A DNA stretch of 53,368 bases from a virus. Its lineage: Duplodnaviria > Caudoviricetes. The position numbers and the translations under genes are program-made. Below, piece by piece: positions 1,282-27,918 of this stretch. Numbering within the stretch: the stretch's first letter is position 1; each line of letters begins with the position of its first letter. The notes beneath the pieces are model-generated. The model worked only from the letters and a program-made list of their open reading frames with translations, had not been told where the DNA came from and searched no databases. The DNA is taken from the IMG/VR virus record IMGVR_UViG_3300030388_000656, positions 1-53,368 of that record; one strand, 5' to 3'.

Positions 1282-1738
1282 CGTGATCTGATAATTTTTG
1301 CTGAAGCTTTTGAATGGTAGTTTTTATTTCCAGAGTTTGTTTCACTACAGATTTAAGTAAAAGGATTGCATCCAATAACATTTTTTTAGTTTCAGCTTTC
1401 ATTCGTCTTTCGTAAGTTATTAATCTATGACAGTTAGCACATCTAACGTCACATTTTTCTACCTCTTTTTTTATAGAAGCTAAGCTATAAGCTCCCTTAA
1501 CCATATCCGATACACACTTGAACTTATCCCCTCTCACATGGTCACATTCTAATAAGACTATATTTTTTTCTCCACAATCAATACAAGGATTTTCCCTTTT
1601 GTGTTGTTTAATATACTCTCTATTCTTATCTCTTTGTGTTGTGTTTCTACTTTTGCTTCTGGCTTTTATCTTTTTCTTATTGGCCTCGTAGTGTTTTTTA
1701 GAGTTTAATGCCTGATCCTTTTTATCTTTGTAAGCCAT
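1262..1738 (-). CDS. HNH endonuclease
   Basis: CIDC...ECDHVRG...KCDVRCANCHR zinc/HNH pattern. Confidence 0.8.
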   Translation of the reverse strand: MAYKDKKDQALNSKKHYEANKKKIKARSKSRNTTQRDKNREYIKQHKRENPCIDCGEKNIVLLECDHVRGDKFKCVSDMVKGAYSLASIKKEVEKCDVRCANCHRLITYERRMKAETKKMLLDAILLLKSVVKQTLEIKTTIQKLQQKLSDHDEQTDS

Positions 1739-1744
1739 TCCATT

Positions 1745-1939
1745 CTACACTTCTTCAGACATAGATTGGATTAGATCAGCTAACTCTTTAATTAAATTCT
1801 TAGCTCTCGCTTTAGCTTCCTCATGTTCCCTGTCCATTAAGTCCTCATACAAGTCATTTCCGAAGTCATGTATTCTGTCACATATATAATTAATATGTGT
1901 TATTGCTTGACTGTCTTCTTTTGATATTCTTGTAGGCAT
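1745..1939 (-). CDS. Hypothetical protein
   Basis: 64 aa ORF in operon spacing. Confidence 0.65.
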   Translation of the reverse strand: MPTRISKEDSQAITHINYICDRIHDFGNDLYEDLMDREHEEAKARAKNLIKELADLIQSMSEEV

Positions 1940-1942
1940 TTA

Positions 1943-2173
1943 TTAATCCATGGCTTTCAATAAACATTCTCCGATGGATGGGTTCACATCTTTAATTGCT
2001 TTGTAAATTCGTTTTGAAATTTGTTTTGTTGTTGTTCGTTCTTTGGGGGATGACTCCGATCCTAAGTTTGTGTACATTTCACAATCTATTTGGAGTAATT
2101 TGTCGACTTTCTTCTTGGCTGACCAGGATGTAAATGATAAAATTTTATCTATGTCATTGGATTTATAATCCAT
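1943..2173 (-). CDS. Hypothetical protein
   Basis: 76 aa ORF in operon spacing. Confidence 0.65.
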   Translation of the reverse strand: MDYKSNDIDKILSFTSWSAKKKVDKLLQIDCEMYTNLGSESSPKERTTTKQISKRIYKAIKDVNPSIGECLLKAMD

Positions 2174-2690
2174 TTATAAGAGAGTTTATTCTTTGTTCGA
2201 CTTTTTGTAATTTGTGTTCTGGAAGTCTACGATCAATTAGCTCTATAATGGAATTGTATCGTTTCCATTTATCCTTGTGAGTTTTTTGTAAATCAGTTAA
2301 CTGTTCTTGAACATTTATTACAGACAAATTTAACATTTTATTTTGATTACGCAAATCTTGAAGCTCTTTTTTTAGCTCGCCTTCCGACATTGGGAAAGGC
2401 TCAAAACTTTCGTCAGTCCATATGGCCAGGATCTCCTGGTAACTTTTATTCATATCCCTATCTGACTTTATCATCCAGGGGAATTCTTTTATTGCATGCA
2501 ACACAGTTGCGTGATTCTTTTGAAAGGCATTACCAATAGAGGTATAAGACATGTGACATTGTTGTCTTAGAATCATATAACATATAGCTCTTCCTTTTAC
2601 CAGCCGATCTGTTTTAATTCTACTTGTTATGTCTGTATTGAGATATACATTAATAATCTCAATTAGTGTTTGGATTTTAGTTTCCTTCAT
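2163..2690 (-). CDS. DnaA C-terminal (domain IV)-like HTH protein with coiled-coil tail
   Basis: GRAICYMILR...SYTSIGNAFQKNHATVLHAIK matches the DnaA domain IV pattern (R..A.YL...S...IG..F..DH.TV.HA). Confidence 0.75.
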   Translation of the reverse strand: MKETKIQTLIEIINVYLNTDITSRIKTDRLVKGRAICYMILRQQCHMSYTSIGNAFQKNHATVLHAIKEFPWMIKSDRDMNKSYQEILAIWTDESFEPFPMSEGELKKELQDLRNQNKMLNLSVINVQEQLTDLQKTHKDKWKRYNSIIELIDRRLPEHKLQKVEQRINSLINGL

Positions 2691-3009
2691 TTAATTTAAT
2701 TTTACAATTTAAGTTCATTAGGTCAAGGTATTCATTCATTGATATAAGTTGCAAGTCTGAGAGCACAATAAATTCTGATTCATCTCTAATCATTTCTAAA
2801 GCAAACGTAATTGGTTCATTGTCATCATCCATGACTATTCCTCCCAACACTGTAGAAATTAATACACTCTCTTTTACATCAGGGAAATTTTGCTCTATAA
2901 ATTTTGCAATTTTAATTCCTGTTCTTATGTCCATACCTGAGATCGTTTCGATAAACTCCTCAGCTACATCATAATCAGCCTCCCTTATATACTTCTGTTC
3001 TGCACCCAT
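2677..3009 (-). CDS. Hypothetical acidic protein
   Basis: 110 aa ORF overlapping its neighbours. Confidence 0.6.
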   Translation of the reverse strand: MGAEQKYIREADYDVAEEFIETISGMDIRTGIKIAKFIEQNFPDVKESVLISTVLGGIVMDDDNEPITFALEMIRDESEFIVLSDLQLISMNEYLDLMNLNCKIKLNEGN

Positions 3010-3223
3010 GTTTTTCTAATTCTTTTAATCTATACTCTTGTAGTTTTGATAGTTTACCAGTTGGTCTTTTCACTTCCGAGAAAAGGACATCGCATCCTGG
3101 TGGTATTGCAATCAAGTCAGGGATACCATTCTTATTAGTCTTAATAAGCTTAAGAACGTAGTACCCTTCTGACTCCAATTGCTTTATTCTTTTACTTTGT
3201 ATTTGTTGTTCTGTCATTTCCAT
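2975..3223 (-). CDS. VRR-NUC domain nuclease (putative Holliday junction resolvase)
   Basis: EQQIQ...GIPDL...FSEVK...GKLSKLQ, the VRR-NUC PD-(D/E)XK signature. Confidence 0.85.
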   Translation of the reverse strand: MEMTEQQIQSKRIKQLESEGYYVLKLIKTNKNGIPDLIAIPPGCDVLFSEVKRPTGKLSKLQEYRLKELEKHGCRTEVYKGG

Positions 3224-3398
3224 TATTTCTATAGTCCTCTAAAAAACCTAATAAAACTATTATGTTCATAGATAGAGACGATACAACTTCTACTACATCG
3301 TGAAAGTCATGAATAGATAAGTGTATGTGGCCCACTACCCAAAAAGGAATAGCTAAGTTTTGGCTGATCCATACTACTAAAAACCTAATGAACCCCAT
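3192..3398 (-). CDS. Small membrane protein
   Basis: Two hydrophobic segments. Confidence 0.55.
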   Translation of the reverse strand: MGFIRFLVVWISQNLAIPFWVVGHIHLSIHDFHDVVEVVSSLSMNIIVLLGFLEDYRNNGNDRTTNTK

Positions 3399-3407
3399 AA
3401 TACAAAT

Positions 3408-4631
3408 TTACAAAGATCTTTTAAAATGACTTAAGGTAAAATCTTTCTTCTTAATTACTGCCTTATAAATATCCTTTTCAATTCCTCCTTTACTGAAGAT
3501 CCAATACACATCAGATTCTAATCTTTCTTTGGTTGTCATCCTATCTCTTGACTGCCAGTAACTTGTAGCACTGAAGTCTATATTGTAGTACACCAGGGCA
3601 TCAGCATTTCTTAAACTTATTCCTTCACGACCTGAAACAATCTGTAATGCTATGGTTTTATTTGTGCTGTCAAAAGTAGGAAGGTCTACACATAATTCAC
3701 TTCCGTAAATTTCTTTCAAAGCACTTAGCTCCTGTTTAAATTTATAAAATATTCCAATCTTTTTTCCCTTAAATCTTTCTTTTATATATTCTGCCTTGCT
3801 ATAATCTAACACCATAGAGTTACCACTTTCAAACTTTATAGTTCCACTACACATCTGATGTACTTTAGTCATAAGTTTAACAGCTGTATCTGCGAGGATA
3901 ACTTCGTTCTGGCCCTCTACTACTAAATCTTTTTTTAGCTTGCTTATAAGGGCTAAGGTTTCTTCTTTTAGTTCTACCTCTAAAACATGTTCTGTTGTTT
4001 CTACAACAAACCCTGCCTGCTTTTGACTAAAGTTAATTGTGTAAGGTCGTAATTTTTCTATAATAGTTTTAGTTCCCTTTGAGTAATCGTTGATGTACAT
4101 GCCTCCTATCTTTTTCTTTACGATTGTAACATACTCCTTAGCAAACTGATAAAAGTTTTTGTACATAGAAAAAGGATTGCCTGGTATAAAATATACTTGA
4201 TGATACATCTGTGAGTATGACTCAGGAGTTGGTGTACCACTTAATAATATTACATAAGGCAAGGATCTTGCGATGATGTTGTTTACTTTTTTAGTTCTTC
4301 CACTTGGTTTAGGAAATGCTCCCATGCCATGAGCTTCATCACATATAACTACATCCCATCCTGTTTGCTTTACCTTGTGTAGAGACTCATAGTTTATAAC
4401 CTCTAACTCAAACTCAGGTAGAAGTAATTCAAAATCGTTTACAATACTGGAGATCGCTTTCTTCTTTGTAATAAACAAAACTTTTTTAGCTCCAATCATA
4501 TCACAAATCCCTAAGCTGGTTAAAGTTTTGCCTGTTCTAACTTCCATAGCTAAATACAGAAACTTAAACTTTTTTATTACTCCTACTCCTTGTGATATGA
4601 TTTCTTTCTGGTATTCTCTGAACTCAATCAT
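3408..4631 (-). CDS. SNF2-like superfamily 2 helicase
   Basis: Q motif REYQ, Walker A variant EVRTGKT, DEAH, SGTP, GISL, QSRDR. Start moved to ATG 4631 (MIEFREYQ), which forms an ATGA overlap with the primase stop. Confidence 0.85.
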   Translation of the reverse strand: MIEFREYQKEIISQGVGVIKKFKFLYLAMEVRTGKTLTSLGICDMIGAKKVLFITKKKAISSIVNDFELLLPEFELEVINYESLHKVKQTGWDVVICDEAHGMGAFPKPSGRTKKVNNIIARSLPYVILLSGTPTPESYSQMYHQVYFIPGNPFSMYKNFYQFAKEYVTIVKKKIGGMYINDYSKGTKTIIEKLRPYTINFSQKQAGFVVETTEHVLEVELKEETLALISKLKKDLVVEGQNEVILADTAVKLMTKVHQMCSGTIKFESGNSMVLDYSKAEYIKERFKGKKIGIFYKFKQELSALKEIYGSELCVDLPTFDSTNKTIALQIVSGREGISLRNADALVYYNIDFSATSYWQSRDRMTTKERLESDVYWIFSKGGIEKDIYKAVIKKKDFTLSHFKRSL

Positions 4632-7039
4632 ATACCTAACGATTCCTGTTTGATATAGTGAGACTTTCGTACAAACTCTATCCATCTTCCTATACCATCT
4701 CTACCTTCTAATGCTTTACACTCATGTTTAAATTCTGCATAAGACATTAGCCATTTACCAAATTCATTTCTGTTTACTGAGTCTCTACTCTTTGGAGCAT
4801 AGTCTGGGTATTCATCAACAAAGTCTAAGAATAAATCATTCTTATATATTCTATGGTCAGTTACAAGCTTTGGATGTGGTTTGCCATCTATAACTCCACA
4901 CCATTCTATAAATGAATAAGAAGTATTCGCTGCGAAGGTTCGAGTCTTTTGATTTATAAAATCACTTTTCAGTAGCCCTTTGTCTAAATATAATTGGAGG
5001 TTTGTAATCATGTAGTTATCAAACTGACACCAGTCATTGTCATCCCACTCTCCAAACATTAGTTTACCAAACTCTACCAGTGGTGTAAACTCTTTGGTAT
5101 AGAATTGATTTAATTCTAACTCCCATTTTCTTCGAGCAAATGAATTTCCTTTTCCTTTTATTGCATAGTTTGTAGTGATGGCAACCTTTGGAGATTTACT
5201 AAATGGAATCTTAATCGCATCCTTGTTTTTCTTCTCTAAGGTTAAACCTTCAGTGACAACACTAAAAAGTCTTTCAAAATTAAAGTTCTTTTTTACATCA
5301 TCAAAACAAAGTATCTGAGTATCTGCTGATACTAATTGATAAGCAAATGATTTCTCAAAGTTAAAAGACTTACCATCTATAACTACCATCTTCTTCATGT
5401 GAGAGATAGCAGTCATGTATAGTCCTTTACCTGTTCCACCTTCTGGATTGTCTGATATTATTTCATCATTCAATATTGTAGCTGGGCAATAAGATAAATT
5501 TTTCCAGCCATGCAATAGAAATCCTATAGTAGATTCCATTGACTTAGTTCTGTGAGGATCGCTACCAGCAATATTATTTACAAATGTTTTAAAGTCACAG
5601 CTTGTGATGTCGCAAAGGTCAAACACTCTATTTATAACATGGTCTTTCCAGACGTATCCACCTAAGTCTAAATAATCTATTGGAGTTACTGCATCCTTAG
5701 TAATTTTTACTGCACAATTTGTGTAATATAAGTAAGCAGTATCTTTTGTGTCAGCAATAAAGTAAACACTGATAGAAGATAGTAGAGTTAAGAACTCTTC
5801 TCTAAAATATCTTGTACACTCTGCAAAGTAATTATATATACTGGTGTCATCTACTTCCAATAAGTATTCTAAAACGAAATCTTTAATCTCTTTCTCGTTT
5901 GCGTGTTCAATTAAGTTGTTGGTTACTTTAACGAATACATAACTTTTACTTCCTTCAGGGCTGAACTTGTAGAATCCATTATCTTCTAAGAAGTTTTTGA
6001 AAGACATGTGTATTATTTTAACCACACCCTTTTCACTTTTGTTCCAGAATTTCTGTTCATCTAATTCTTCCTCAAATCTCCTTAGGACATTATCAATTAC
6101 TACATCATCTATAGAGGTCTCATCTTCCAGTGTGTTTTTGATTTCACTATTAGACAATCCCCTTCTCATCTTTGCTTTTACTGAGTTAACTCTTTCTTCA
6201 TCTTCGTAATACTTAGTTCCAAAGTTTTGTTTCTGGGCATAAGCAGACTTGATTGTTCTTTTTAGTTCTCCAGAAGTAAAGTCTTTTGATGTGAAAGGAC
6301 TCATTACATATTCAGCTAAAGTTTGAGTAACTCCAAAGTCATTAAACGCTGAAGCTAATATGTATATATTATTATTTCTTTCTCCATCTTTGAATCCGTA
6401 CTTTCTTTCCCACCACTTCATTAAGATTTCTACAATCTTATTCTCATCAGTGATAGGAATAGTCTGTACATCTTTATGTTTTATTACTTCTTGGTATTGT
6501 TGTTCTGTTATTTGATTGAATACACTTGACTGCTCATTAATAAAAATTAATGGATCATATGATTCATAACAAACTCTCGATACATTTCTACATGCCTTAT
6601 CAAAGTATTCGCTGTCGTAATGTACCTGTAGTGAATTAAAGAATTTTATATGTGTTTCATCTTCAGCTGGTATCTTAACCAATACTTTCAATCCCAATCC
6701 ACTGGGAGATATGAATACTGAATATGTGTATCTGTCTTTAGTTAGTCTTTCTTTTTCCTCTAACATTTGTTTTTCTGAAGGAAAATTGTCGAAGTCTAAA
6801 CATATCAACCCACTATGTAAAGTGATTGAAGAGTCATTTCTTTTAGTAAATTTACCACTAAAACAAATTGCTGGTAGTGATTGCTTTAATTGATTTCTTA
6901 TTTCTTTATCTGATTCTGATCGTATTGATCTTACTATGTCTTGTGATGCTCCCTGTTTTATTCTTTCTATTATTATACTTACATCTCTATAAAAAGGTTG
7001 AGCAGTATCTTTGATGTCCTTAAATATTGTTATTTCCAT
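4628..7039 (-). CDS. Primase-helicase (BT4734/VirE-N-like N-terminus, PriCT-like linker, C-terminal NTPase)
   Basis: KQSLPAICFSG...HSGLICLDFD...FISPSGLGLK...DKACRNVSRVCY (VirE-N/BT4734-like); GERNN (PriCT-like); Walker A GGTGKG and Walker B LCFDD. Confidence 0.85.
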   Translation of the reverse strand: MEITIFKDIKDTAQPFYRDVSIIIERIKQGASQDIVRSIRSESDKEIRNQLKQSLPAICFSGKFTKRNDSSITLHSGLICLDFDNFPSEKQMLEEKERLTKDRYTYSVFISPSGLGLKVLVKIPAEDETHIKFFNSLQVHYDSEYFDKACRNVSRVCYESYDPLIFINEQSSVFNQITEQQYQEVIKHKDVQTIPITDENKIVEILMKWWERKYGFKDGERNNNIYILASAFNDFGVTQTLAEYVMSPFTSKDFTSGELKRTIKSAYAQKQNFGTKYYEDEERVNSVKAKMRRGLSNSEIKNTLEDETSIDDVVIDNVLRRFEEELDEQKFWNKSEKGVVKIIHMSFKNFLEDNGFYKFSPEGSKSYVFVKVTNNLIEHANEKEIKDFVLEYLLEVDDTSIYNYFAECTRYFREEFLTLLSSISVYFIADTKDTAYLYYTNCAVKITKDAVTPIDYLDLGGYVWKDHVINRVFDLCDITSCDFKTFVNNIAGSDPHRTKSMESTIGFLLHGWKNLSYCPATILNDEIISDNPEGGTGKGLYMTAISHMKKMVVIDGKSFNFEKSFAYQLVSADTQILCFDDVKKNFNFERLFSVVTEGLTLEKKNKDAIKIPFSKSPKVAITTNYAIKGKGNSFARRKWELELNQFYTKEFTPLVEFGKLMFGEWDDNDWCQFDNYMITNLQLYLDKGLLKSDFINQKTRTFAANTSYSFIEWCGVIDGKPHPKLVTDHRIYKNDLFLDFVDEYPDYAPKSRDSVNRNEFGKWLMSYAEFKHECKALEGRDGIGRWIEFVRKSHYIKQESLGI

Positions 7040-7090
7040 TTTGGTATGTTGATTGAATTTGATTGTTTACTTGATTAACTACTTCTTTTT

Positions 7091-7194
7091 ATGTTAGAAT
7101 GTTGAATAAAATTAAAAAATAGAAAAGAGTATAAAGATATATATATAGTATACTACTAACCTACTAAAATGTAAAAACTTTAACACTTCGACAT
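7091..7194. promoter_or_regulatory. Origin-like element copy A (15 bp inverted arms around an AT-rich core)
   Basis: Arms atgttagaatgttga (7091-7105) and ttaacacttcgacat (7180-7194), 74 bp spacer containing atatatatatagt. Same geometry as 14967-15070. Lies directly upstream of the primase gene. Confidence 0.55.
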
Positions 7195-7229
7195 AAAAAA
7201 AAGAAAAAGAAAGGGGGAATTACCCCCCT
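7195..7229 (-). terminator. Intrinsic terminator after the SSB-like gene
   Basis: - strand agggggg-taatt-cccccttt hairpin followed by a long T tract. Confidence 0.75.
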
Positions 7230-7250
7230 AACTTATTCAGTTTGGTCTAA

Positions 7251-7511
7251 CTAAAATGGTAAATCCTCATTAGGCTGAGGAGCTTCTTCCTTTTTAGCTT
7301 CAGGTTTAAAGGTGTCAATAGCAACATAATGTGTTTTACCATATTCATCTGCCCCACCTTTCTTAGAAGATACATTAAGTTTAATGTACTTCTTTCCGTT
7401 GTACTCGAACATGTGTTCTTGAGGTAAGTCTGTTAGACATACACTGCAAGAGATCATGTTACCATCGAACTTGGAAACTCCGTTTCCAACATAGATTTTT
7501 TCTTCTGCCAT
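7251..7511 (-). CDS. Putative single-stranded DNA-binding protein
   Basis: Small beta-rich protein with acidic C-terminal tail NEDLPF; adjacent to the SSAP and exonuclease genes. Confidence 0.6.
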   Translation of the reverse strand: MAEEKIYVGNGVSKFDGNMISCSVCLTDLPQEHMFEYNGKKYIKLNVSSKKGGADEYGKTHYVAIDTFKPEAKKEEAPQPNEDLPF

Positions 7512-7513
7512 AA

Positions 7514-7711
7514 TTAAATTGTTTTGTAGATTAATTTTTCCAACTGATTCATTGTAGCTTCCATGAGATTGTCTCTTTCAGCCTGAGTGTTGAGGTCGGT
7601 TGGAATTTGCAACCACACCACTCGTTTGTTTTTATTAAAGGGTTTCTTTAATAATATAGTTTTGAATATCTTCTTCAGCATCTTCTTTATAAAATTTATT
7701 AAACACTTCAA
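7514..7711 (-). CDS. Hypothetical protein (start uncertain)
   Basis: Fills the gap between the exonuclease and SSB-like genes. Confidence 0.5.
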   Translation of the reverse strand: MKCLINFIKKMLKKIFKTILLKKPFNKNKRVVWLQIPTDLNTQAERDNLMEATMNQLEKLIYKTI

Positions 7712-8405
7712 TTGCTTTCTCTACTTTTTCTTTTCCGTATTGCAGGAATGTTTCTGATGGATAGTATATACCTAACTCCAGAGTTGTTTTGTCAACTACA
7801 TAAAACACCATAGGCTTATTAAAAAACTGCTGGTATAAATATGCTTGGCTGTCGTAATTATATTTCCTTGCACTATACTTAAAGTCTTTTATGTTTCCAG
7901 TAGTTTTTAGATCAATGAGAAAGTCTTTACCAACTATGTCGGCTTTTCCTTTCCACATCATTCCAGCAACCTCCTGAAGAGCTGGTACTTCAAATTGATT
8001 ATCTTCAGAATAGATAGCATCATAGAACTCTAAATTATTGTTCATTGAAGCTATAGCTTTATCTGTTTCCTCTTTTTCTTTAGTAAGCATCATTAACTCT
8101 CTACCATGCTCCTGAATCTCTTCTTTATATTTCTTAGTATTCCTGCTGGATGCATCGATACTTATAAATTCATCATTGTCTATTTTTAAGGGTTCTAATA
8201 TAGCTGTGTGAAAATACCTGCCTATAAGCATAGGCTTTGTTATCTCTTTAGGTTTTCTAAAGCTTTTAGGATCATTAAGTAAAGTAATGATGTCAGAGTT
8301 AGATAAGAACTGCTGACCAAACTTACCATAGTATTGGTCATCATCTTTTAGTTTCTCTTTAATTTCAGAAACTAATTTTTCGTTATAGTTGGGAGGCACT
8401 TTCAT
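7635..8405 (-). CDS. PD-(D/E)XK exonuclease (RecE/ExoVIII C-terminal, DUF3799-like)
   Basis: LSNSDI, GRYFHTAILEP, KGKADI...IDLKTT, YDSQAYLY motifs. Confidence 0.85.
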   Translation of the reverse strand: MKVPPNYNEKLVSEIKEKLKDDDQYYGKFGQQFLSNSDIITLLNDPKSFRKPKEITKPMLIGRYFHTAILEPLKIDNDEFISIDASSRNTKKYKEEIQEHGRELMMLTKEKEETDKAIASMNNNLEFYDAIYSEDNQFEVPALQEVAGMMWKGKADIVGKDFLIDLKTTGNIKDFKYSARKYNYDSQAYLYQQFFNKPMVFYVVDKTTLELGIYYPSETFLQYGKEKVEKAIEVFNKFYKEDAEEDIQNYIIKETL

Positions 8406-9022
8406 TACTTAATAGATTTAGAAAGCTCCTTCTTAACTACAGCTTTAATGTTATACTTAACCTCTAAGTTTTTGATAATCTTAGGCAATCCTAACTCTTT
8501 GTTCTTAGCAATATAGCTCAAAACTTTTACCCAGTTAGTATCTCCAATATTTAACTCAACATGTGTTGATGTTTTAGGTACTGGTGACTTACTTACTGGC
8601 TGAGGTGTTGGTTGCTTAATCGTTTGCATCGTGTCCTCTCCAATCCATAAACTTAATCCTAATCCATGCATTGCAATTGCTTTAGCAGTAGATCTCTGGA
8701 TTGTTGTATTTACATCCATTGAAGTTACCTTCTCAATAGGTATAGAATTGTTTCTATAGTCCATTACTGGTAGGTAATCAATATGCTCCATGTCATCAAT
8801 AGTAATACCTACTTTACAATATGCAGTTTTACCATCAGTAAAAAAGTTTAGTCCAGTATGCTCTGATTCATATACAACTCTTTGTGCAGATGGATGTGCA
8901 GTTTTAATTAAGCTCCATGCTGAAGCCCATGACAGGTAACTGAATTTACCTTTCTTTTCGATTTTATCCTTTACAGATATGGAAGCAAGTTCCTTAAAAT
9001 AATTTTTCTTCTCTGTTGCCAT
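8405..9022 (-). CDS. Sak3/DUF1071-like single-strand annealing protein
   Basis: IEKKGKFSYLSWASAW, YLPVMDYRN, QRSTAKAIAMHGLGLSLW motifs. Confidence 0.85.
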   Translation of the reverse strand: MATEKKNYFKELASISVKDKIEKKGKFSYLSWASAWSLIKTAHPSAQRVVYESEHTGLNFFTDGKTAYCKVGITIDDMEHIDYLPVMDYRNNSIPIEKVTSMDVNTTIQRSTAKAIAMHGLGLSLWIGEDTMQTIKQPTPQPVSKSPVPKTSTHVELNIGDTNWVKVLSYIAKNKELGLPKIIKNLEVKYNIKAVVKKELSKSIK

Positions 9023-9425
9023 AATTGATTTGATTTAATTTATTTAATTTTAGTTGTTTATTTGCATATTTTTTAAGCAAAATCTCTCTGCTTGTCTTGA
9101 GTCTTTGTATGTGCTTATCGTTCTTTCTGGTATTGACTTCACTTCTGATTTTGTTCTCAATCAAATCCAGCTTTCTTTTATAGTTGTGCATCGATAATCT
9201 GATTCCTCCTTCTTTCCAGCCGAAGTCATAAAAGAATTTGTATTCCTCTTCATTGCATTCCTGAAAGTAATCTCCACTCCTGCCACAATTTAATATCTCA
9301 GTTTTTGAGCCAAACTTCTGGAGCTTTACTCCATTGTTTATAACACCAACACCATTAGGCATATTAACTTTCATAGCTACTATGTCATTAAGTGACTGAT
9401 CATATATGTCTTCTAAATTATACAT
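8994..9425 (-). CDS. Hypothetical protein
   Basis: Start moved to ATG 9425 (MYNLEDIY) to avoid a long overlap with 9418-9711. Confidence 0.6.
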   Translation of the reverse strand: MYNLEDIYDQSLNDIVAMKVNMPNGVGVINNGVKLQKFGSKTEILNCGRSGDYFQECNEEEYKFFYDFGWKEGGIRLSMHNYKRKLDLIENKIRSEVNTRKNDKHIQRLKTSREILLKKYANKQLKLNKLNQINYGNREEKLF

Positions 9426-9711
9426 TCTGAAGTTTGTTAACCACCTCCTGAAAGTCTTGGTCAGATTCAATAAGTTCTTTTGCTTTTTTATATCCATGGA
9501 TGATTGTAGAATGAGTTGTTGTATGCCCATGCTCCTCCAAGAATCTTTGTATGTATGATATTCTGATTGGTCTTTCCATACATAAGTAGTATAGCATCTG
9601 TCTTGCATCTACAATATCCCTACGTTTAGTTTTAGTAAACATCTGGTCTAATGATAGATGAAATTGGTCTGCTATTGCTGATGCATATGCATCAAAAATG
9701 TCTTTTTTCAT
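9418..9711 (-). CDS. DnaA C-terminal (domain IV)-like HTH protein
   Basis: TKRRDIVDARQMLYYLC...HSTIIHG. Confidence 0.75.
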   Translation of the reverse strand: MKKDIFDAYASAIADQFHLSLDQMFTKTKRRDIVDARQMLYYLCMERPIRISYIQRFLEEHGHTTTHSTIIHGYKKAKELIESDQDFQEVVNKLQNV

Positions 9712-10015: not shown

Positions 10016-10224
10016 TTCTTTTTAAATCTAAATTGTGACATATCATTATTGATTGTCATCGGCTTTCTGTATAACGGAATAAGAGAGGTAAACTTGTCGT
10101 TATCCTCTCTCCTTCCACTATTCTTAAAATAATCATCAAACTCAATTACATTACTCCTGTAGTTGTCTTCGAATTCTTTTAGTCTTTTGTACTCTTCTAT
10201 AAATTCTCTGGTATCTGGACTCAT
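10012..10224 (-). CDS. Hypothetical protein
   Basis: 70 aa ORF with ATGA overlaps on both sides. Confidence 0.65.
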   Translation of the reverse strand: MSPDTREFIEEYKRLKEFEDNYRSNVIEFDDYFKNSGRREDNDKFTSLIPLYRKPMTINNDMSQFRFKKK

Positions 10225-10823
10225 TCGACAATGATGTGTCTTTTACTCTCTTCTCTGATGTATTTTTTAGCTTCAACTAATGAAGTACCTAAAAACTCCA
10301 TACCCCACCAGTCGCAGTAGTATCCTATTCCACCATCGTAGTTTGGATGCTCATCTAATAACTTAGATAGATGGTATGTTTTCTTCTTATAAGTGTATTC
10401 AATTTCTTCATCAAAGTTTGGTTCATCGTATTCATCGTGCATAATCTGTTCTCCATTTTCATACTCCATCTCTCCTCCCCAGCCATTTTCTTCTTCCCAA
10501 TGGTAAATGAAGTCTGGAAAGTCCTTACTAAATAATTCAATGATGTTCATTCCAATACAGCTCCATGCTGAAGAGAAATTAATAGATCCCTCGTTTATGT
10601 CTATTTCGATGTCGTAACATCCCCATTTTGTATTCCAGTTATGAAGTCTCCATTCATACCATTTATGGTCTGCATCTCCCTTGTTTATCTCTGGAAGATA
10701 GTGTCTACATAAAGCTACTGGTTCTTCAGAATTCAATGTACTTTCCCAGTACTTTAGAATGTCTCTTTGTTTAGTGGTCATATCGTTACCGATTTGGATT
10801 CCACTCATTACATGATTTGGCAT
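10221..10823 (-). CDS. Api92/YubB-like ferredoxin-like domain protein
   Basis: MPNH start, WYEWRLHNWNTKW, FSSAW, WEEE..WGG motifs. Confidence 0.65.
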   Translation of the reverse strand: MPNHVMSGIQIGNDMTTKQRDILKYWESTLNSEEPVALCRHYLPEINKGDADHKWYEWRLHNWNTKWGCYDIEIDINEGSINFSSAWSCIGMNIIELFSKDFPDFIYHWEEENGWGGEMEYENGEQIMHDEYDEPNFDEEIEYTYKKKTYHLSKLLDEHPNYDGGIGYYCDWWGMEFLGTSLVEAKKYIREESKRHIIVE

Positions 10824-10842
10824 AATAGTTTTTGATTTTATT

Positions 10843-10895
10843 TATACTGACTACCTTTCGGTAGTTTCGGATACTGAATCCATCATCAGAGTATA
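10843..10895 (-). ncRNA. Type I hammerhead ribozyme HHR-1
   Basis: - strand RNA: UAUACU CUGAUGA U GGAU-UCAGU-AUCC GAA A CUACC-GAAA-GGUAG U C ^ AGUAUA. Full catalytic core, three perfectly paired stems, GUC cleavage triplet (cut between 10849 and 10848). Confidence 0.93.
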
Positions 10896-10896
10896 T

Positions 10897-11175
10897 TTAC
10901 AAGTGTCCTCCATACCCATTGGGAAGTTGGAATCTCCACTCGCTGTCGCTTTCTGGTTCGTTCATTCCTTCGTGGTCATGAACCCCACTACCAAACACAA
11001 TCTCAGTTTGGTTAATTAAATTATCTAAGACATCTACCCAGCTGTCTTCTATACTCATTAGGTAATCTGAAACATCTTCTTCTTTGATGTTCTCTGGTAG
11101 CTCTACCTCAATCTCGGTGTATTTATGATACACACTTCTCTGTTGTATTGTTACTGAATTTTTAGCCATTTCCAT
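10897..11175 (-). CDS. Hypothetical acidic early protein
   Basis: 92 aa ORF; stop codon ends 1 nt before HHR-1. Confidence 0.7.
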   Translation of the reverse strand: MEMAKNSVTIQQRSVYHKYTEIEVELPENIKEEDVSDYLMSIEDSWVDVLDNLINQTEIVFGSGVHDHEGMNEPESDSEWRFQLPNGYGGHL

Positions 11176-11390
11176 AGTTTTTCGGTTAAACTTAATTTAG
11201 GTACACAACCATATGATTCAAAGATTACATCCAGACTATTTATTTCTAATTCAATAAAGTGTTCTGAGTGTGGTGTGAAATCAAATGCTCCTGTTGTTGC
11301 GTTGTACTCTACTGCTTGCTCATCATACTTGTGATGGCACATCTCTTCAGCTATGTAGCGTTTGAGATTTTGTAATTCTACTTCATCCAT
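11151..11390 (-). CDS. Hypothetical early protein
   Basis: 79 aa ORF downstream of the promoter at 11431-11462. Confidence 0.65.
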   Translation of the reverse strand: MDEVELQNLKRYIAEEMCHHKYDEQAVEYNATTGAFDFTPHSEHFIELEINSLDVIFESYGCVPKLSLTEKLWKWLKIQ

Positions 11391-11430
11391 GTTGTTTAAT
11401 TTAATTTAATTAATAGTTATTTTATGTTCA

Positions 11431-11462
11431 CAAAAGTATTAAATACTTAGCTTAAATCCAAA
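11431..11462 (-). promoter_or_regulatory. Bacteroidota consensus promoter
   Basis: - strand TTTG-N20-TACTTTTG, a perfect -33/-7 match. Confidence 0.75.
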
Positions 11463-11654
11463 TTATACTCCGTAAATTAATTTGAGTAATATCCACAGGA
11501 GGTAAGACACTATAAGAAGGAAAACAGATGCTCCCAGTCCAAATACTAATGCCTCCAGTAGGAACTTAGATGGGTTCTTCTGGATTCTTTCCCAGTCAGT
11601 ATCCTCCTTGTAGTTGTCGTACTTCTTGTCGATTTTGTTTATTCTATCTTTCAT
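11463..11654 (-). CDS. Small membrane protein
   Basis: Long hydrophobic C-terminal segment. Confidence 0.6.
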   Translation of the reverse strand: MKDRINKIDKKYDNYKEDTDWERIQKNPSKFLLEALVFGLGASVFLLIVSYLLWILLKLIYGV

Positions 11655-11878
11655 AATCCTTGTCTTTTCTCATCAGCTAAGTCTTCTAAATAAGACTCAT
11701 GCCTGTTGACATTATACTCATCTTCATCAATGATTTCGCACTCATCTTTGCACTCATCACAGATGTAGCATCCTTCTACCTCTTCGTTCTCTTCAAACTC
11801 TTCGTATCCAGCTCCACAGCAAGTACTAACTTCCTCTGAGTAATCTGGAGAGGCTAATTTCCAATTGTCGTAATTCAT
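11651..11878 (-). CDS. Acidic zinc-ribbon-like protein
   Basis: STCCGA...CYICDECKDEC. Confidence 0.6.
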   Translation of the reverse strand: MNYDNWKLASPDYSEEVSTCCGAGYEEFEENEEVEGCYICDECKDECEIIDEDEYNVNRHESYLEDLADEKRQGL

Positions 11879-11888
11879 ATCTATTTAT

Positions 11889-12020
11889 TTATTTGTACCA
11901 ACCATAGGTCGGTAGTTTCTTGCATTGTCTTGTACTACTGCAAGAGATTAATGATAACAGCACAACCAAACAATATGTGTATGCCATGAGTTTTAAAAAT
12001 ACCTTTGTTGAGTTTTTCAT
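11889..12020 (-). CDS. 43 aa putative lipoprotein (missing from the ORF track)
   Basis: MKNSTKVFLKLMAYTYCLVVLLSLISC-SSTRQCKKLPTYGWYK; lipobox LISC; fills the intergenic gap exactly. Confidence 0.6.
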   Translation of the reverse strand: MKNSTKVFLKLMAYTYCLVVLLSLISCSSTRQCKKLPTYGWYK

Positions 12021-12022
12021 AT

Positions 12023-12325
12023 CTAAAATGGAAGTTCGTTAAAGCTATTTTCTATCTGGTCTGAATACCTTTTGAATATTTCATTCCAGTCAATACACTT
12101 GATATCTTCATACTCAAATTGCTCGCTGTCTACCAGTGACATGAATTCCGTTAAAGGATTGTCAAAGTTAGACTTATTGTCCAGAATAACACATAGTCTG
12201 TAAGTCTGTACATTTTTGTAGCCATAGAACTTCTCTTCTATGTCGTTCTTTTCTTTGGTAAGGTTCTCTACCAGTTCTTTGTACTTATTGATGTCTTCAA
12301 TAAGGTTCTTTGCAGTTAAATCCAT
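12023..12325 (-). CDS. Hypothetical protein with N-terminal coiled coil and C-terminal ELPF
   Basis: 100 aa ORF. Confidence 0.65.
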   Translation of the reverse strand: MDLTAKNLIEDINKYKELVENLTKEKNDIEEKFYGYKNVQTYRLCVILDNKSNFDNPLTEFMSLVDSEQFEYEDIKCIDWNEIFKRYSDQIENSFNELPF

Positions 12326-12346
12326 AGATCTATTTATTTAGGTTTT

Positions 12347-12394
12347 GAGGAACATCCCTCTACCACGAAATCCCCACTAATTTCTTAGTGAGGC
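12347..12394 (-). ncRNA. Unrecognised two-hairpin structured motif, copy B1
   Basis: - strand G CCUCACUAA-GAAA-UUAGUGGGG AUUUCGUGGUA GAGGG-AUGU-UCCUC; covaries with the copy at 13390-13436. Confidence 0.6.
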
Positions 12395-12395
12395 A

Positions 12396-12435
12396 TGGGT
12401 ACGTTATCGTATCCTTCTGGGTACGTTATCGTATC
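12396..12435. repeat. 18 bp perfect direct repeat x2 (22 bp period)
   Basis: tgggtacgttatcgtatc at 12396-12413 and 12418-12435. Confidence 0.9.
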
Positions 12436-12659
12436 TATTTTACTGGTTTCCTTCCTACATGATTGAAAAGGATGTAAAGACTATCTGTCTTATGCTGGTA
12501 CTCATTGTAGGTCTTTTGCAACTCGTAGTCAATTCGTTCTCTCTCCATTAATTGTAGCGTTGAGAATTTATATGAACTACATGATTGTAGTAAAAATGAT
12601 ACAGCCAGAACTACAAATGCATATCGCATGTAGTAAGTGAAAATTGTTTTTAAACTCAT
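12435..12659 (-). CDS. Putative lipoprotein
   Basis: Hydrophobic signal ending LLQSC, followed by SS. Confidence 0.6.
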   Translation of the reverse strand: MSLKTIFTYYMRYAFVVLAVSFLLQSCSSYKFSTLQLMERERIDYELQKTYNEYQHKTDSLYILFNHVGRKPVK

Positions 12660-12660
12660 C

Positions 12661-13008
12661 TTAGTTGTTTGTATTAGTTATTATTGCTTGCTCTTCTTCT
12701 GTATACTCTTGGATGTCTACCAGTTTACCATCTATCTCTTCGTACTGGATATCTTCATCCTCTACCCAGTCTGTCCAGTAATAAATCTCATCGTTGTAAG
12801 CCCATTCCATTAATTCTTCATCAGTCATCTTGCTTGGGTACAGCTGGTTTCCATCTTCATCCTCTGCTGTAAAATCTTGACCTCTCAAGGTGTCAATTAA
12901 GTCCTTGTCATTTGCAATATACTCGTGGTCGTTGTACAGGTAACCTTCGTTCATACCCTCTCCAGTTATACCACATTGTCTTGCCCAAAAAATTCTTTCT
13001 TTACTCAT
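12661..13008 (-). CDS. Hypothetical acidic early protein
   Basis: Start moved to ATG 13008 (MSKERIFW) because the track start at 13080 lies inside HHR-2. Confidence 0.7.
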   Translation of the reverse strand: MSKERIFWARQCGITGEGMNEGYLYNDHEYIANDKDLIDTLRGQDFTAEDEDGNQLYPSKMTDEELMEWAYNDEIYYWTDWVEDEDIQYEEIDGKLVDIQEYTEEEQAIITNTNN

Positions 13009-13036
13009 CTTATTTGAATTAGTTTGTATCATTATT

Positions 13037-13089
13037 GATAGTGACTGCCAGCTGGCAGTTTCGGATATTAAATCCATCATCAGACTATC
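13037..13089 (-). ncRNA. Type I hammerhead ribozyme HHR-2
   Basis: - strand RNA: GAUAGU CUGAUGA U GGAU-UUAAU-AUCC GAA A CUGCC-AGCU-GGCAG U C ^ ACUAUC. Full core with compensatory changes relative to HHR-1; cut between 13043 and 13042. Confidence 0.93.
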
Positions 13090-13372
13090 TGCTTCCCTCC
13101 ATGCAGTCTTTAAACATTATCCAGTCAGATACTTTCATGTCTTCAAATATCACATGTCCAAGCACGCTTACTAACTCCTCTTTCATTGTAGTTTGTGCCA
13201 TGATTAATCTAAGTTTTGGATAGTAGATACCTCCCATTTCATATGAGATTTTCTCTTCATCTTCTGGAGTTAATGTGTCTTTGATTCTGATACAATTCAT
13301 CTCTCTCTGAATTAACTCATTTCTGAAATCGTGCTTTAACATCTGTACTTGGTTTAAAATCTTTGCGTTCAT
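13085..13372 (-). CDS. Hypothetical early protein
   Basis: 95 aa ORF; its TAG stop lies within stem I of HHR-2. Confidence 0.7.
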   Translation of the reverse strand: MNAKILNQVQMLKHDFRNELIQREMNCIRIKDTLTPEDEEKISYEMGGIYYPKLRLIMAQTTMKEELVSVLGHVIFEDMKVSDWIMFKDCMEGSR

Positions 13373-13389
13373 GTCTTTAATTTTAGTTT

Positions 13390-13436
13390 AGGAATAGTCC
13401 TGTACCACGAAATCCTCGCATATTTCTATGCAAGGC
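13390..13436 (-). ncRNA. Unrecognised two-hairpin structured motif, copy B2
   Basis: - strand G CCUUGCAUA-GAAA-UAUGCGAGG AUUUCGUGGUA C AGGA-CUAU-UCCU. Confidence 0.6.
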
Positions 13437-13455
13437 TTTCTCTGGAGAGGGGTTT

Positions 13456-13752
13456 CTACGATATTCTCGGCACAACAGCATCATCATCTGGGTTGTTTGC
13501 ACTTTCATATATACCTATGAAGTCATGCACTACATCCGTTAACCTGTGCTTACTGAGTCTATTCATTCCGTATTTTGTTACTTCCTCTACCCATTCTTGA
13601 TTGGTTTCTACTACTTGTTTGAGCATGTCTCTTACTGGCTTATTCTCTTGCTTAGAGATTTCTAACATCCAGTTCATAGGCATGAGAATATCTAATCTCA
13701 TTACTAATTCTTGTCTCTTTTGTTGTGCTAAAATTTGATTGGAAATATGCAT
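13456..13752 (-). CDS. Hypothetical early protein
   Basis: 98 aa ORF. Confidence 0.65.
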   Translation of the reverse strand: MHISNQILAQQKRQELVMRLDILMPMNWMLEISKQENKPVRDMLKQVVETNQEWVEEVTKYGMNRLSKHRLTDVVHDFIGIYESANNPDDDAVVPRIS

Positions 13753-13772: not shown

Positions 13773-14033
13773 TTAGTATAATTCTGATTTCTCGATGTTC
13801 TTGATTTCGTATTTTGGTAGCTCTTCGCAGTACTCTGAGTACTTGTTAAATGAATGCTCACACTTTCTGTCGATTTGTCTCAACTCCTTAGAATCGTATT
13901 CACATACGTTCTCATCTAAGTTGTCATAGACTAAGTCTCTGGTGTTATTGAATGCGTTGTGCTTTACCAACCAGTTAACTGCCTTAGTTACCAGTGGCTG
14001 ATTTTTAGACTTGATAGCTGTAAATTTACTCAT
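13773..14033 (-). CDS. Hypothetical protein, first gene of the early operon
   Basis: 86 aa ORF about 40 bp downstream of a -7 box. Confidence 0.7.
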   Translation of the reverse strand: MSKFTAIKSKNQPLVTKAVNWLVKHNAFNNTRDLVYDNLDENVCEYDSKELRQIDRKCEHSFNKYSEYCEELPKYEIKNIEKSELY

Positions 14034-14073: not shown

Positions 14074-14081
14074 CAAATATA
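14074..14081 (-). promoter_or_regulatory. Bacteroidota -7 box for the early operon
   Basis: - strand TATATTTG. Confidence 0.65.
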
Positions 14082-15121: not shown

Positions 15122-16768
15122 ATGGAACAAGGATACATTCCTAAAGACCTCAGCTTTGATGATGAGGCAAGGAACAAATTGATAAGTGGGATTACTAAAA
15201 TCTCCAAAGCAGTTAAGAGTACGTTAGGGCCAAGAGGTCAAACTGTTTTAATAGAATCAACAGAACATTTACAGGGGTTAACTATTACAAAGGATGGAGT
15301 TACTGTCGCTAAGTCAGTACACCTTGATGATCCTATTGAGAACCTTGCAGTTCGTATGATGAAGCAAGCTTCTGAGAAGACTGCTAATGTTGCTGGAGAT
15401 GGAACTACTACAGCTATTGTATTGACTGAAGCTATTGTCCAGGCAGGAATGAAATGGATCAAGCCTTATCATAATGTAACTGACATTGTTAGATACATAA
15501 GAGAGGACTCTGATGTTATTATAGAGAACATTAGGAATAGATCATTAGAGGTTACTGATGATATGTTAAAAGACATTGCAGCTATATCAGCTAACAATGA
15601 TTATGAGTTAGGAGATATTATCTCTGAAGCATATCAACAAGTTGGTAAGGATGGGATAGTAACAGTTGAGAGATCTCAAACTGACAAGACATATTCAGAG
15701 GTTACTAATGGAATAAGAATAGATAGAGGTTATACTTCTCCTATGTTTATTAATGATCAAAGAAAAGATGAATGTATTATGGAAGGTGTTAAGGTTTTAA
15801 TCTGCGACACTGAGATTCATAACATACTTCAAATAGAGAATATACTTAAACCAATTATTAATGCAGGAGATAAACTTTTAATTATCGGAACTTGTGCTGG
15901 CAATGTTATAAATACATTAGCAGCAAATGTTCAACGTAATGGATTAAAGTTTTGTAACATCATGCCTCCTTCATTTGGATACAAGACTCATGAGTTAATG
16001 CAGGATATTGCATTTGCTACTGGAGCTAAATACTTTTCAGAAAAGACTGGAGATGATTTATCTATTATAACTATGGCAGACTTGGGTTATGCTGATAAGA
16101 TTATAGTAGGCAAGTCATCTACTGTTATTATAAAGCAAGGAGATATTAGTGATGAGACATCTTCAAGAGTAGCAGAGCTACGAGATCAACAAGAAAGACT
16201 TACAGCAAAACATGAGAAGGACTTTATCAATGAAAGGATTGCTTCTTTAGTTGGAGGGATAGGTTGTATATATGTTGGGGCTACATCTGATATAGAACAA
16301 AAAGAAAAATTTGACAGAGTCGATGACTCTGTCTGTGCAGTACGTTCAGCTCTACAAGAAGGAGTTGTTCCTGGTGGAGGATTATTGTTATATGATTTCT
16401 CAAGACACTTCGGTTGTAACTGTGAAGATGCAGTATCTGAAAAGATAGATGAAGACCAGGCAGCAGAAATGATTATGAGAGAAGCTTTGAAAGCTCCACT
16501 AAAACAAATCCTTGCTAATGCTGGGCTTGATGAAAAGGAAGTTATGTCAGAGATATATACTGATGCTATGTTAGGAACATTAGATGATGCTCCTGAAGTA
16601 CCAGAAAATAACAGAGGCTATGATGTGGTAGGTAAACAATACGGAGATATGTTTGAGATGGGTATTGTTGATCCAGCCAAAGTAACGAAAGAAGCTTTGC
16701 TTAATGCAATTAGTGTTGCAACAACTATACTAACTACTAACGCAATCATAACACATAAACGAGCATGA
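15122..16768 (+). CDS. groEL: Phage-encoded group I chaperonin GroEL
   Basis: AVKSTLGPRG, ITKDGVTVAK, AGDGTTTA, IDRGYTSP, ERIASL.GG, GVVPGGG, GIVDPAKV. Confidence 0.97.
   Translation: MEQGYIPKDLSFDDEARNKLISGITKISKAVKSTLGPRGQTVLIESTEHLQGLTITKDGVTVAKSVHLDDPIENLAVRMMKQASEKTANVAGDGTTTAIVLTEAIVQAGMKWIKPYHNVTDIVRYIREDSDVIIENIRNRSLEVTDDMLKDIAAISANNDYELGDIISEAYQQVGKDGIVTVERSQTDKTYSEVTNGIRIDRGYTSPMFINDQRKDECIMEGVKVLICDTEIHNILQIENILKPIINAGDKLLIIGTCAGNVINTLAANVQRNGLKFCNIMPPSFGYKTHELMQDIAFATGAKYFSEKTGDDLSIITMADLGYADKIIVGKSSTVIIKQGDISDETSSRVAELRDQQERLTAKHEKDFINERIASLVGGIGCIYVGATSDIEQKEKFDRVDDSVCAVRSALQEGVVPGGGLLLYDFSRHFGCNCEDAVSEKIDEDQAAEMIMREALKAPLKQILANAGLDEKEVMSEIYTDAMLGTLDDAPEVPENNRGYDVVGKQYGDMFEMGIVDPAKVTKEALLNAISVATTILTTNAIITHKRA

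Positions 16769-25026: not shown

Positions 25027-27918
<2,892 letters not shown>

Follow-up and report, generated by a model that had tools for sequence, protein, structure and literature searches.

Hammerhead ribozymes and a second structured RNA motif share the gene junctions of a putative early operon in a likely marine Flavobacteriia phage

Why would a phage intersperse the small genes of one operon with hammerhead ribozymes and, in the same position, with an unrelated folded RNA? The question is raised by the virus record IMGVR_UViG_3300030388_000656 from IMG/VR, the whole of which was analysed and is called the window below (53,368 bp, linear, completeness estimate 88%). At 10.8–14.1 kb, in an arm that is called early from its gene content, a reading made from the sequence alone (hereafter the sequence-only reading) had noticed two hammerheads, HHR-1 and HHR-2, and two copies of a second motif, here named motif B (B1 and B2), and had suggested that the phage segments its host-takeover mRNA with such elements. 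Covariance models (R1 for the hammerheads, R2 for motif B), together with strong covariation in the stems, bear out that both are real, conserved RNA elements, and in related phages the two replace each other upstream of orthologous early genes.

Hammerheads self-cleave and thereby leave 2',3'-cyclic phosphate and 5'-OH ends. The two copies of the window were found by R1 as well as by a structural descriptor:

10842..10896, minus strand: HHR-1, type I hammerhead (R1 59.2 bits, E = 5e-13; descriptor match), with stem I 10895-10890 paired with 10848-10843, CUGAUGA 10889-10883, extra U 10882, stem II 10881-10869, GAA 10868-10866, stem III 10865-10850 and C17 10849
Between C 10849 and A 10848, minus strand: predicted cut of HHR-1
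13036..13090, minus strand: HHR-2, type I hammerhead (R1 61.4 bits, E = 1.1e-13; descriptor match), with stem I 13089-13084 paired with 13042-13037, core 13083-13077, extra U 13076, stem II 13075-13063, GAA 13062-13060, stem III 13059-13044 and C17 13043
Between C 13043 and A 13042, minus strand: predicted cut of HHR-2

Each consists of an open stem I of 6 bp, CUGAUGA, a 4-bp stem II with a 5-nt loop, GAA, a 6-bp stem III that starts with A-U and carries a tetraloop, and C17 followed by the 3' strand of stem I. The closing pairs G10.1-C11.1 and A15.1-U16.1 are present, loops close stems II and III, and the open stem I defines both copies as type I. The conserved core of the class (C3 U4 G5 A6 N7 G8 A9, G12 A13 A14 and a non-G nucleotide, H17) is found in both copies. 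For HHR-2, the minimum-energy structure is the three-helix fold (z = -2.9), and between HHR-1 and HHR-2, stems I and III show compensatory changes; the stem I strands of one copy do not fit those of the other. The pattern CTGATGA-N(8-30)-CGAAAC has two matches in the window, both of them the hammerheads, where 0.03 were expected and none of 100 shuffles reached two. Both copies feature an extra U between A9 and G10.1, which only 4 of the 32 distinct family members have; an extra nucleotide at this position is described as a natural variant, and a viroid hammerhead had a higher rate with U in this place (PMC3705267; cf. PMC4209133). Taken as a whole, HHR-1 and HHR-2 are almost certainly genuine members of the hammerhead class, and their intact cores suggest that they would cleave themselves in vivo.

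Relatives were gathered by two protein searches, of which the one with the single-strand annealing protein Sak gave 33 viral-contig loci and the one with the primase contributed the best 80 of 230 (loci are given as L numbers). The descriptor, run on all related loci (2.18 Mb), returned 32 distinct hammerheads, each of them encoded on the same strand as the primase gene and none on the other, with an intact catalytic core in nearly all copies. In an alignment of 28 of these (four copies of more than 62 nt were dropped), 98.7% of the cells are paired and 12 of the 14 pairs show two-sided changes. The descriptor demanded pairing, and this percentage is hence partly built in, which does not apply to the variety of pair types and the strand bias. 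Covariation reached 0.787 compared to 0.168 after shuffling (0/500 shuffles reach 0.787) and at most 0.09 with slid partners, while alignment pair 17-33 is G-C in 28/28 and pair 37-60 is A-U in 27/28 copies.

Both covariance models were run on the two strands of the window and 83 non-redundant related loci (1.40 Mb), where R1 gave 47 hammerhead matches at E <= 0.017, all on the coding strand. Among 42 whole related records of at least 40 kb, R1 matched 26, on one strand per record and in clusters; in a record with eight hammerheads, seven lie within ~4.4 kb at one contig end and one lies at the other. The closest relative by primase identity, L071, carries at 576-719 (+) a hammerhead with a stem III insertion of ~90 nt, read by eye. 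R1 missed this copy, and counts of hammerhead-free records are therefore upper bounds. Three hammerheads with an identical stem I, ~505 nt apart, are present at L083:218-1301 (+), with a fourth match further upstream in the record, and units released between ribozymes with a common stem I, as in the records of L083 and L105, could in principle re-pair and circularise. At L075:819-929 (+), CUGAUGA...GAA beside a closed hairpin is a possible type III hammerhead with a poor stem II, again seen by eye. Moreover, the cultured Flavobacterium phage vB_FspP_elemoE_10-3D has an R1 match at 27094-27153 (34.1 bits, E = 5e-7) between small hypothetical genes, with an ATG 24 nt on; it is a candidate hammerhead with a poor stem II, whose activity is uncertain from its sequence. 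In the record of this cultured phage, an annotated opposite-strand open reading frame (ORF) of 35 aa that overlaps the candidate hammerhead at L290:1581-1688 (MT497078.1 27080-27187) is probably spurious.

The second element of the region, motif B, is composed of a lower helix P1, an upper helix P2 and, in part of the copies, a third hairpin P3:

12347..12405, minus strand: motif B1 (R2 match 12360-12405, 58.0 bits, E = 2.2e-14), with P1 5' strand 12398-12394, P2 12393-12372, AUUU 12371-12368, P1 3' strand 12367-12363, UA 12362-12361 and P3 12360-12347
13390..13447, minus strand: motif B2 (R2 match 13402-13447, 45.1 bits, E = 2.4e-10; fold z = -3.75), with P2 13436-13414, AUUU 13413-13410, P1 3' strand 13409-13405, UA 13404-13403 and P3 13402-13390

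The 13-nt core GGATTTCGTGGTA occurs exactly twice in the window, at 12361-12373 and 13403-13415. RNAfold returns the hairpin of P1, bulge and P2 for both copies (z = -3.4 and -3.75), and the minimum-energy fold of B1 comprises P1, a 4-nt bulge, P2 and P3. In B2, P1 is irregular: three of its five positions pair in the simple register, and the pairing CCA/UGG plus GAAA/UUUC proposed by RNAfold fits better. The layout common to the family is P1 (~5 bp), a spacer of 0-8 nt, P2 (9-10 bp) with a hairpin loop of mostly 4 nt (GAAA), (A/U)UUU, the 3' strand of P1 and a near-invariant UA, after which P3 follows in about half of the copies and an A/C-rich stretch in the rest.

A hairpin-plus-tail rule gave a seed of 35 distinct copies, in which 99% of the P2 cells pair and 7/9 pairs show two-sided changes. 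A U-G pair in P2 is kept in 28/35 copies and limits the P2 fold to coding-strand RNA. With model R2, the number rose to 58 matches at E <= 0.014, all on the coding strand and many outside the seed rule. For P1, the five bases after the U-run vary (CGUGG, GGUGG, AGUGG, CUAGG, UUGGG, CGUAG, CGUGU), and in such variants the five-base stretch 0-8 nt upstream of P2 alters to match. An earlier test that accepted the longest helix anywhere nearby was too permissive (5.96 vs 5.69) and was replaced by a register-limited one (partner within 14 nt), where 29/44 distinct copies are fully paired vs 30% after shuffling; the mean number of paired positions was 4.61 vs 4.22 +/- 0.07 with permuted partners, and 0/1000 permutations reached the observed value. 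In 16 copies picked for similar spacing, 3/5 pairs of P1 show two-sided changes. We are therefore highly confident that motif B is a selected RNA structure.

When applied to the 42 whole records, R2 matched 19, and in the 13 records with strong matches to both models motif B lies on the hammerhead strand; one weak R2 match (16.9 bits) on the opposite strand is probably false. R2 did not match the three named phage records MW202828.1, MT497078.1 and PP540027.1. A search of viral contigs with a 16-base pattern of motif B returned 34 loci, of which L006 and L017 (identical sequence) hold the only true copies, arranged as in the window, i.e., motif B, then a hammerhead, then motif B; the other loci were rejected as copies, since there the pattern lies inside unrelated coding sequence. 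In L083, L076, L045, L119 and L110, a sequence rich in G and U precedes motif B and is complementary to the A/C-rich leader of the next ATG; the two could form an outer helix or terminal inverted repeats, a feature that the window copies do not have.

Where do these elements lie? As the sequence-only reading had stated, all four are intergenic, on the coding strand and close to the next ATG, with distances of 19 nt for HHR-1, 28 nt for HHR-2, 35 nt for B1 (from GUGGUA) and 30 nt for B2. They are the only significant sites of R1 and R2 on both strands of the window, next to one weak motif B match at 6852-6889 (E = 0.36). Random placement in relatives, which had been named in advance as an outcome that would speak against the proposal, was not what the proposed covariance search returned: all 105 elements of the window and the 83 loci (47 hammerheads and 58 copies of motif B) are found on the coding strand of the early arm, invariably outside ORFs. 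The hammerheads usually start within a few bases of the upstream stop codon and leave a median of 20 nt up to the next ATG; for motif B the median is 33 nt. Neighbouring elements are a median of 906 nt apart, up to three copies of motif B occur per operon, and in whole related records the elements are gathered in one zone of ~6 kb or less.

Two features of the earlier description proved to be particular to the window. The alternation of hammerhead and motif B is a coincidence of this genome, as 27/56 neighbouring element pairs differ in type vs 26.7 +/- 2.3 expected, with orders including HHHBBB and BBHB (H, hammerhead). Likewise, the coupling of motif B to a direct repeat did not hold up in relatives:

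12396..12435, minus strand: 18-nt direct repeat in two copies, 12435-12418 and 12413-12396, 4 nt apart

The end of the second repeat copy supplies the P1 5' strand of B1. The same repeat occurs in L096 (402-442), where it is inside an ORF, and is absent from every other listed copy of motif B. It was hence rejected as a part of the motif, and what the window shows may be a leftover of a gene's end rather than an RNA signal.

When the genes downstream of the elements were grouped into protein clusters, 6/21 multi-member clusters were preceded by a hammerhead in some phages and by motif B in others, and hammerhead and motif B therefore fill one niche. The clearest swap concerns downstream genes that are 64-75% identical, with motif B in L126, hammerheads in L125 and L136, and unrelated upstream genes. 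The gene after HHR-1 belongs to one of these six clusters, and four relatives (31-47% identity) have motif B upstream of it. At shared junctions, the upstream neighbour genes differ between relatives, and blastn of 10.8-14.3 kb against the related loci found sparse similarity that for the most part falls within the elements: ~15 loci resemble B1 (79-94%) but not its flanks, three loci resemble B2 (90-95%), and from ~9.8 kb onwards most related loci align with the window. The suggestion that such dispersed elements act as recombination points thus gains support from the similarity islands and from orthologous genes with different elements and neighbours, and the elements probably double as exchange junctions for early-gene cassettes.

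As an explanation of these data, we favour a modular RNA punctuation of the early operon and regard it as rather probable. The stretch at 10.8-14.1 kb would be the hypervariable front of the early (replication) arm, consisting of small genes without known family, and in its polycistronic transcript, cis-acting RNA modules would set apart blocks of one to four genes, each module immediately following a stop codon and leaving 20-35 nt to the next start. The hammerheads would self-cleave after C17, which would leave the upstream mRNA with the two stable hairpins of the ribozyme and a 2',3'-cyclic phosphate at its end, and the downstream mRNA with a 5'-OH and a short A-rich leader at its start. 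Motif B would also segment the mRNA or protect its ends, as an extended hairpin that a host or phage endonuclease would most likely cut in or beside the U-rich bulge, and both events may affect stability and translation. A precedent in principle is found in mitochondria, where tRNAs between the cistrons mark the cut points of a long polycistronic transcript; the likeness lies in structured RNAs between cistrons, whereas the marks proposed here are a ribozyme and a hairpin instead of tRNAs.

For motif B, the closest analogy is offered by the early RNase III sites of phage T7 and by lambda sib. These are bulged intercistronic hairpins of early phage RNA, in which an asymmetric internal loop separates an upper from a lower stem, and at lambda sib/tI, read-through extends a terminator hairpin into a nuclease site. 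Motif B has the same layout of P2, U-run and then P1; in contrast to the T7 and lambda sites, its helix is shorter and nuclease action on it is only proposed. If an RNase III-type site is taken to span about two helical turns with an internal loop, motif B offers P1 of ~5-8 bp and P2 of 9-10 bp around an asymmetric loop, with a length at the low end. That motif B is a nuclease processing or stabilising site of this kind is a tentative assignment, to which we give slightly less than even credence.

Several observations weigh against the punctuation model as a whole. Cleavage was seen in no reads; no RNA run was listed as containing the region, and four metatranscriptome runs from the same samples gave a few short contig pieces (e.g., 10941-11103) with no usable ends and are neutral on expression and cleavage. 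About one third of the motif B copies, including B2 of the window, are without a clean P1 in the simple register, the combined helix of ~14-18 bp is short for a classical RNase III site and has few conserved unpaired bases, and P2 with its U-run resembles a weak intrinsic terminator. At L136:1298-1440 (+), motif B runs straight into a hammerhead with a long stem III, and the two would be redundant if both simply cut. Moreover, 11/42 related records are without either element, and the modules are therefore dispensable at any given junction. Finally, cmscan with Rfam, at the gathering threshold and at E <= 10, on the window, on 3.5 kb and on 91 nt around HHR-2, returned no hammerhead, and a search with RF00163 scored both window candidates above E = 10. 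The Rfam scans of window and region gave chance snoRNA-like matches only and no credible family. However, Rfam also misses a fully canonical relative in L006 that is without the extra U, and for this reason we read it as insensitive to this hammerhead subfamily; its hammerhead model seems narrow in this respect, although the negative is not fully explained.

The likeness to a terminator leads to a first alternative, in which motif B is a leaky intrinsic terminator or pause site that steps down transcription and provides the upstream mRNAs with hairpin 3' ends, while the hammerheads are a separate device. Indeed, the 9-10 bp of P2 are G-C-rich at the base and closed by a GNRA-type loop, every copy continues into a UUU(U) tail with 3-5 U, and the commonest tail, UUUUGGUG, contains 5 U in 8 positions and thereby reaches the threshold of a simple terminator scan. 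The same scan does not call B1 or B2, however, and the clear terminator of this phage (7229-7212) has a far longer U-rich tail. Furthermore, the 3' strand of P1, which lies beyond the U-run, covaries with its upstream strand, and selection therefore acts on the read-through RNA. To take the place of a hammerhead at an orthologous junction, a terminator would also need a new promoter, and altogether we regard this option as unlikely.

A second alternative takes up the exchange of cassettes. The elements could matter mainly as DNA or selfish modules, i.e., as junctions by which ORFan cassettes spread and are exchanged, with RNA cleavage being incidental. This would account for similarity islands that are limited to the elements in an otherwise unalignable region, for element types and upstream neighbours that differ at orthologous genes, and for the existence of a composite junction of motif B and hammerhead. 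Such exchange points have been described in T4-type phages, where the PeSLs, conserved intergenic promoter/stem-loop motifs that flank variable ORFan genes of hyperplastic early regions, are credited with cassette exchange (PMC4122927). The elements of the window resemble PeSLs in their boundary position and similarity islands, but PeSLs combine a promoter with a terminator-like stem-loop, whereas here one element is a ribozyme and the other a bulged hairpin that covaries, and neither contains a promoter consensus on reading its sequence. Compensatory changes, U-G pairs and the absolute strand bias show that selection acts on RNA folds, and the catalytic core of the hammerhead is intact in nearly all copies. 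As the primary role of the elements, DNA exchange thus appears improbable; as an additional one, it is compatible with RNA punctuation.

Somewhat more doubtful is a role of motif B as a binding site for a phage or host protein, e.g., as a translational operator, a nut-like antitermination site or a chaperone site, rather than as a cleavage site. Its sequence is conserved beyond the needs of pairing, with a near-invariant P2 base, U-run and UA and many GNRA-like loops, and identical P2 sequences occur in phages with primases that are only ~68% identical and with unrelated flanks. On the other hand, the early ORFs scanned include no candidate RNA-binding protein, and a motif that is present in as many as three copies per operon, each just ahead of a start codon, and that swaps with a self-cleaving ribozyme fits processing better than a single regulatory site.

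In favour of RNA punctuation, relatives without either element have further structured repeats between their genes, at comparable sites. According to a broader reading, this phage family fills one fixed intercistronic niche of its early operons from a toolkit of interchangeable type I hammerheads, motif B, a three-helix motif C and lineage-specific hairpins, and at least one of motifs B and C is a new class of self-cleaving RNA or a dedicated nuclease signal; we regard this as a speculative idea with a rather small chance of being correct. Motif C was observed in five copies at L097:2254-4600 (+), a locus with no R1 or R2 match, as an outer helix around two hairpins, one of which has a conserved 8-nt loop. 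Its copies follow directly after a stop codon, ~35 nt before an ATG, differ from each other by compensatory changes and have no Rfam match. The L075 record, likewise with no R1 hammerhead or R2 motif B match, has eight intergenic copies of a conserved 7-bp hairpin with a tetraloop in its early arm (832-9470, +), one of them terminator-like with a U-rich tail and the others lengthened by covarying lower stems. At L067:2127-7180 (+), five copies of a different short hairpin and two of another 16-nt motif are intergenic, and two hairpins in the early arm of this locus flank the apparent 3' part of a tRNA.

Could motif B itself be a new self-cleaving ribozyme? Pistol, hatchet, twister and twister-sister were found via their association with hammerhead or twister contexts (PMC6154101), and motif B could be such a find: it shares niche, strand and spacing with the hammerheads, replaces them at orthologous junctions and matches no known family (129 nt with B1 gave no Rfam match at E <= 10). 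As a small RNA near phage genes that co-occurs with hammerheads, it resembles pistol, hatchet and twister; unlike these, it is without their defining architectures, namely three stems and a 6-bp pseudoknot from the P1 loop in pistol, four stems with conserved bulges in hatchet and a double pseudoknot in twister (PMC6154101). An assignment to these three classes was hence rejected, as the 4-nt loop is too short for a pseudoknot and only P1, P2 and the optional P3 are present. More generally, all natural small nucleolytic ribozymes are described as having helices joined by conserved unpaired nucleotides that form a tertiary core (PMC6765202), while motif B amounts to no more than a bulged hairpin in which very few unpaired nucleotides are conserved, P3 is optional and no pseudoknot or multi-helix junction is visible, which makes a ribozyme very unlikely. 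The weakest option, a solitary CRISPR-repeat mimic acting as an RNA anti-CRISPR, could draw on the hairpin and short tail in phage intergenic DNA that are also described for solitary repeat units (PMC10651486) but was rejected as extremely improbable, given that no host repeat matching motif B was found in the patterns scanned: a 29-base consensus pattern had 0 matches in the genomes of 185,579 species, a looser 18-base pattern had single matches only and no array was seen among the matches listed, and among these a strong motif B was present in 2/80 model-scanned loci, both metagenome-assembled contigs with three copies in total.

The RNA punctuation favoured here would act at the head of one of the two divergent arms of the window. 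The plus-strand arm, from ~15 kb, encodes terminase, portal, virion and tail-fibre proteins, and its first listed large ORF (>=120 aa) beside the divergent promoter region is a Cpn60/GroEL-family chaperonin of 548 aa (15122-16768, +; Pfam E = 3.7e-62). The minus-strand arm runs from ~14.07 kb downwards, first through a dozen small ORFs without family match and then through genes for the Sak protein, a PDDEXK exonuclease, a primase-like protein and an SNF2-type helicase. As these four replication-type proteins are encoded there and the terminase, portal and tail genes are on the opposite strand, we infer that the minus arm is the early one. Its front part contains the following features:

14074..14081, minus strand: promoter-like -7 box TATATTTG heading the early arm, by resemblance to the Bacteroidota consensus
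13773..14033, minus strand: early ORF 1, 86 aa, no family
13456..13752, minus strand: early ORF 2, 98 aa, no family
13085..13372, minus strand: early ORF 3, 95 aa, with its stop TAG (13087-13085) within stem I of HHR-2
12661..13008, minus strand: early ORF 4, 115 aa from ATG 13008; a longer frame from 13080 starts within the ribozyme core
12435..12659, minus strand: early ORF 5, 74 aa, with a putative lipoprotein-like N-terminus, read by eye
11463..12325, minus strand: four small early ORFs of 100, 43, 75 and 63 aa; the three scanned (all except the 43-aa one) gave no family match
11431..11462, minus strand: promoter-like site TTTG-N20-TACTTTTG, a string match
10897..11390, minus strand: two early ORFs of 79 and 92 aa, with the stop TAA (10899-10897) 1 nt before stem I of HHR-1
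10221..10823, minus strand: first gene after HHR-1, 200 aa, with a weak DUF1281_C match under the Pfam cut-off

The gene order given by the sequence-only reading, from the promoter at 14074 through HHR-1, agrees with this list. Of the promoters that it had placed at 14074 and 11431, the strings do exist, but they are not enriched over shuffles, neither TATATTTG nor TTTG-N20-TACTTTTG, whose 8 matches in the window compare with 3.35 expected; they are called promoter-like by comparison with the Bacteroidota consensus. A strong terminator-like hairpin with a long U-rich tail was observed upstream of the primase gene (7039-4628), at 7212-7229 on the minus strand. Pfam scans of ten early ORFs gave no match above the cut-off, blastn of this region against 50,697 phage records returned no match, and the search for related loci with the 200-aa protein downstream of HHR-1 yielded no confirmed relative. 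A tblastn search with the primase had matches in 36 phage records, which are mostly named as phages of Flavobacterium, Nonlabens, Polaribacter, Cellulophaga and Maribacter, and the DNA sequencing runs that contain the region are marine. Runs in which 0.87-0.99 of sampled words of this phage occur are a source of near-identical genomes. The window is therefore likely to derive from a marine phage of Flavobacteriia.

Phage hammerheads, and the idea that they process transcripts, are already published; motif B and its interchangeability with the ribozyme are new. Perreault 2011 described hammerheads that flank phage and prophage genes, proposed that a long transcript is thereby processed into gene-length mRNAs and reported in vitro cleavage for three tandem arrangements (PMC3088659). 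As in those clusters, several hammerheads on the same strand flank single genes or short blocks of variable identity. The clusters described here differ in that they belong to marine Flavobacteriia-type phages, are all of type I with an open stem I of 6 bp, hold a fixed position in which the stop codon touches stem I and the ATG follows after ~20 nt, and share their niche with a motif that is not a hammerhead; the alignments of the 2011 study might already include relatives of the window hammerheads. In 2019, the purpose of bacterial and phage hammerheads was still called unresolved (PMC6765202). Since the cultured phage vB_FspP_elemoE_10-3D carries a candidate hammerhead in the same context, the question is accessible to ordinary infection experiments.

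Apart from the ribozymes, motif B adds a well-supported new RNA motif, with 58 copies and covariation in two helices. If the toolkit reading were true, these phages would have arrived convergently at different ways of cutting an mRNA at one position, with the modules also driving the shuffling of cassettes. More generally, a ribozyme and an unrelated fold that swap at the same distance from the same genes limit the function of both to what each of them can do, and a candidate for this common function is the making or protecting of mRNA ends between cistrons.

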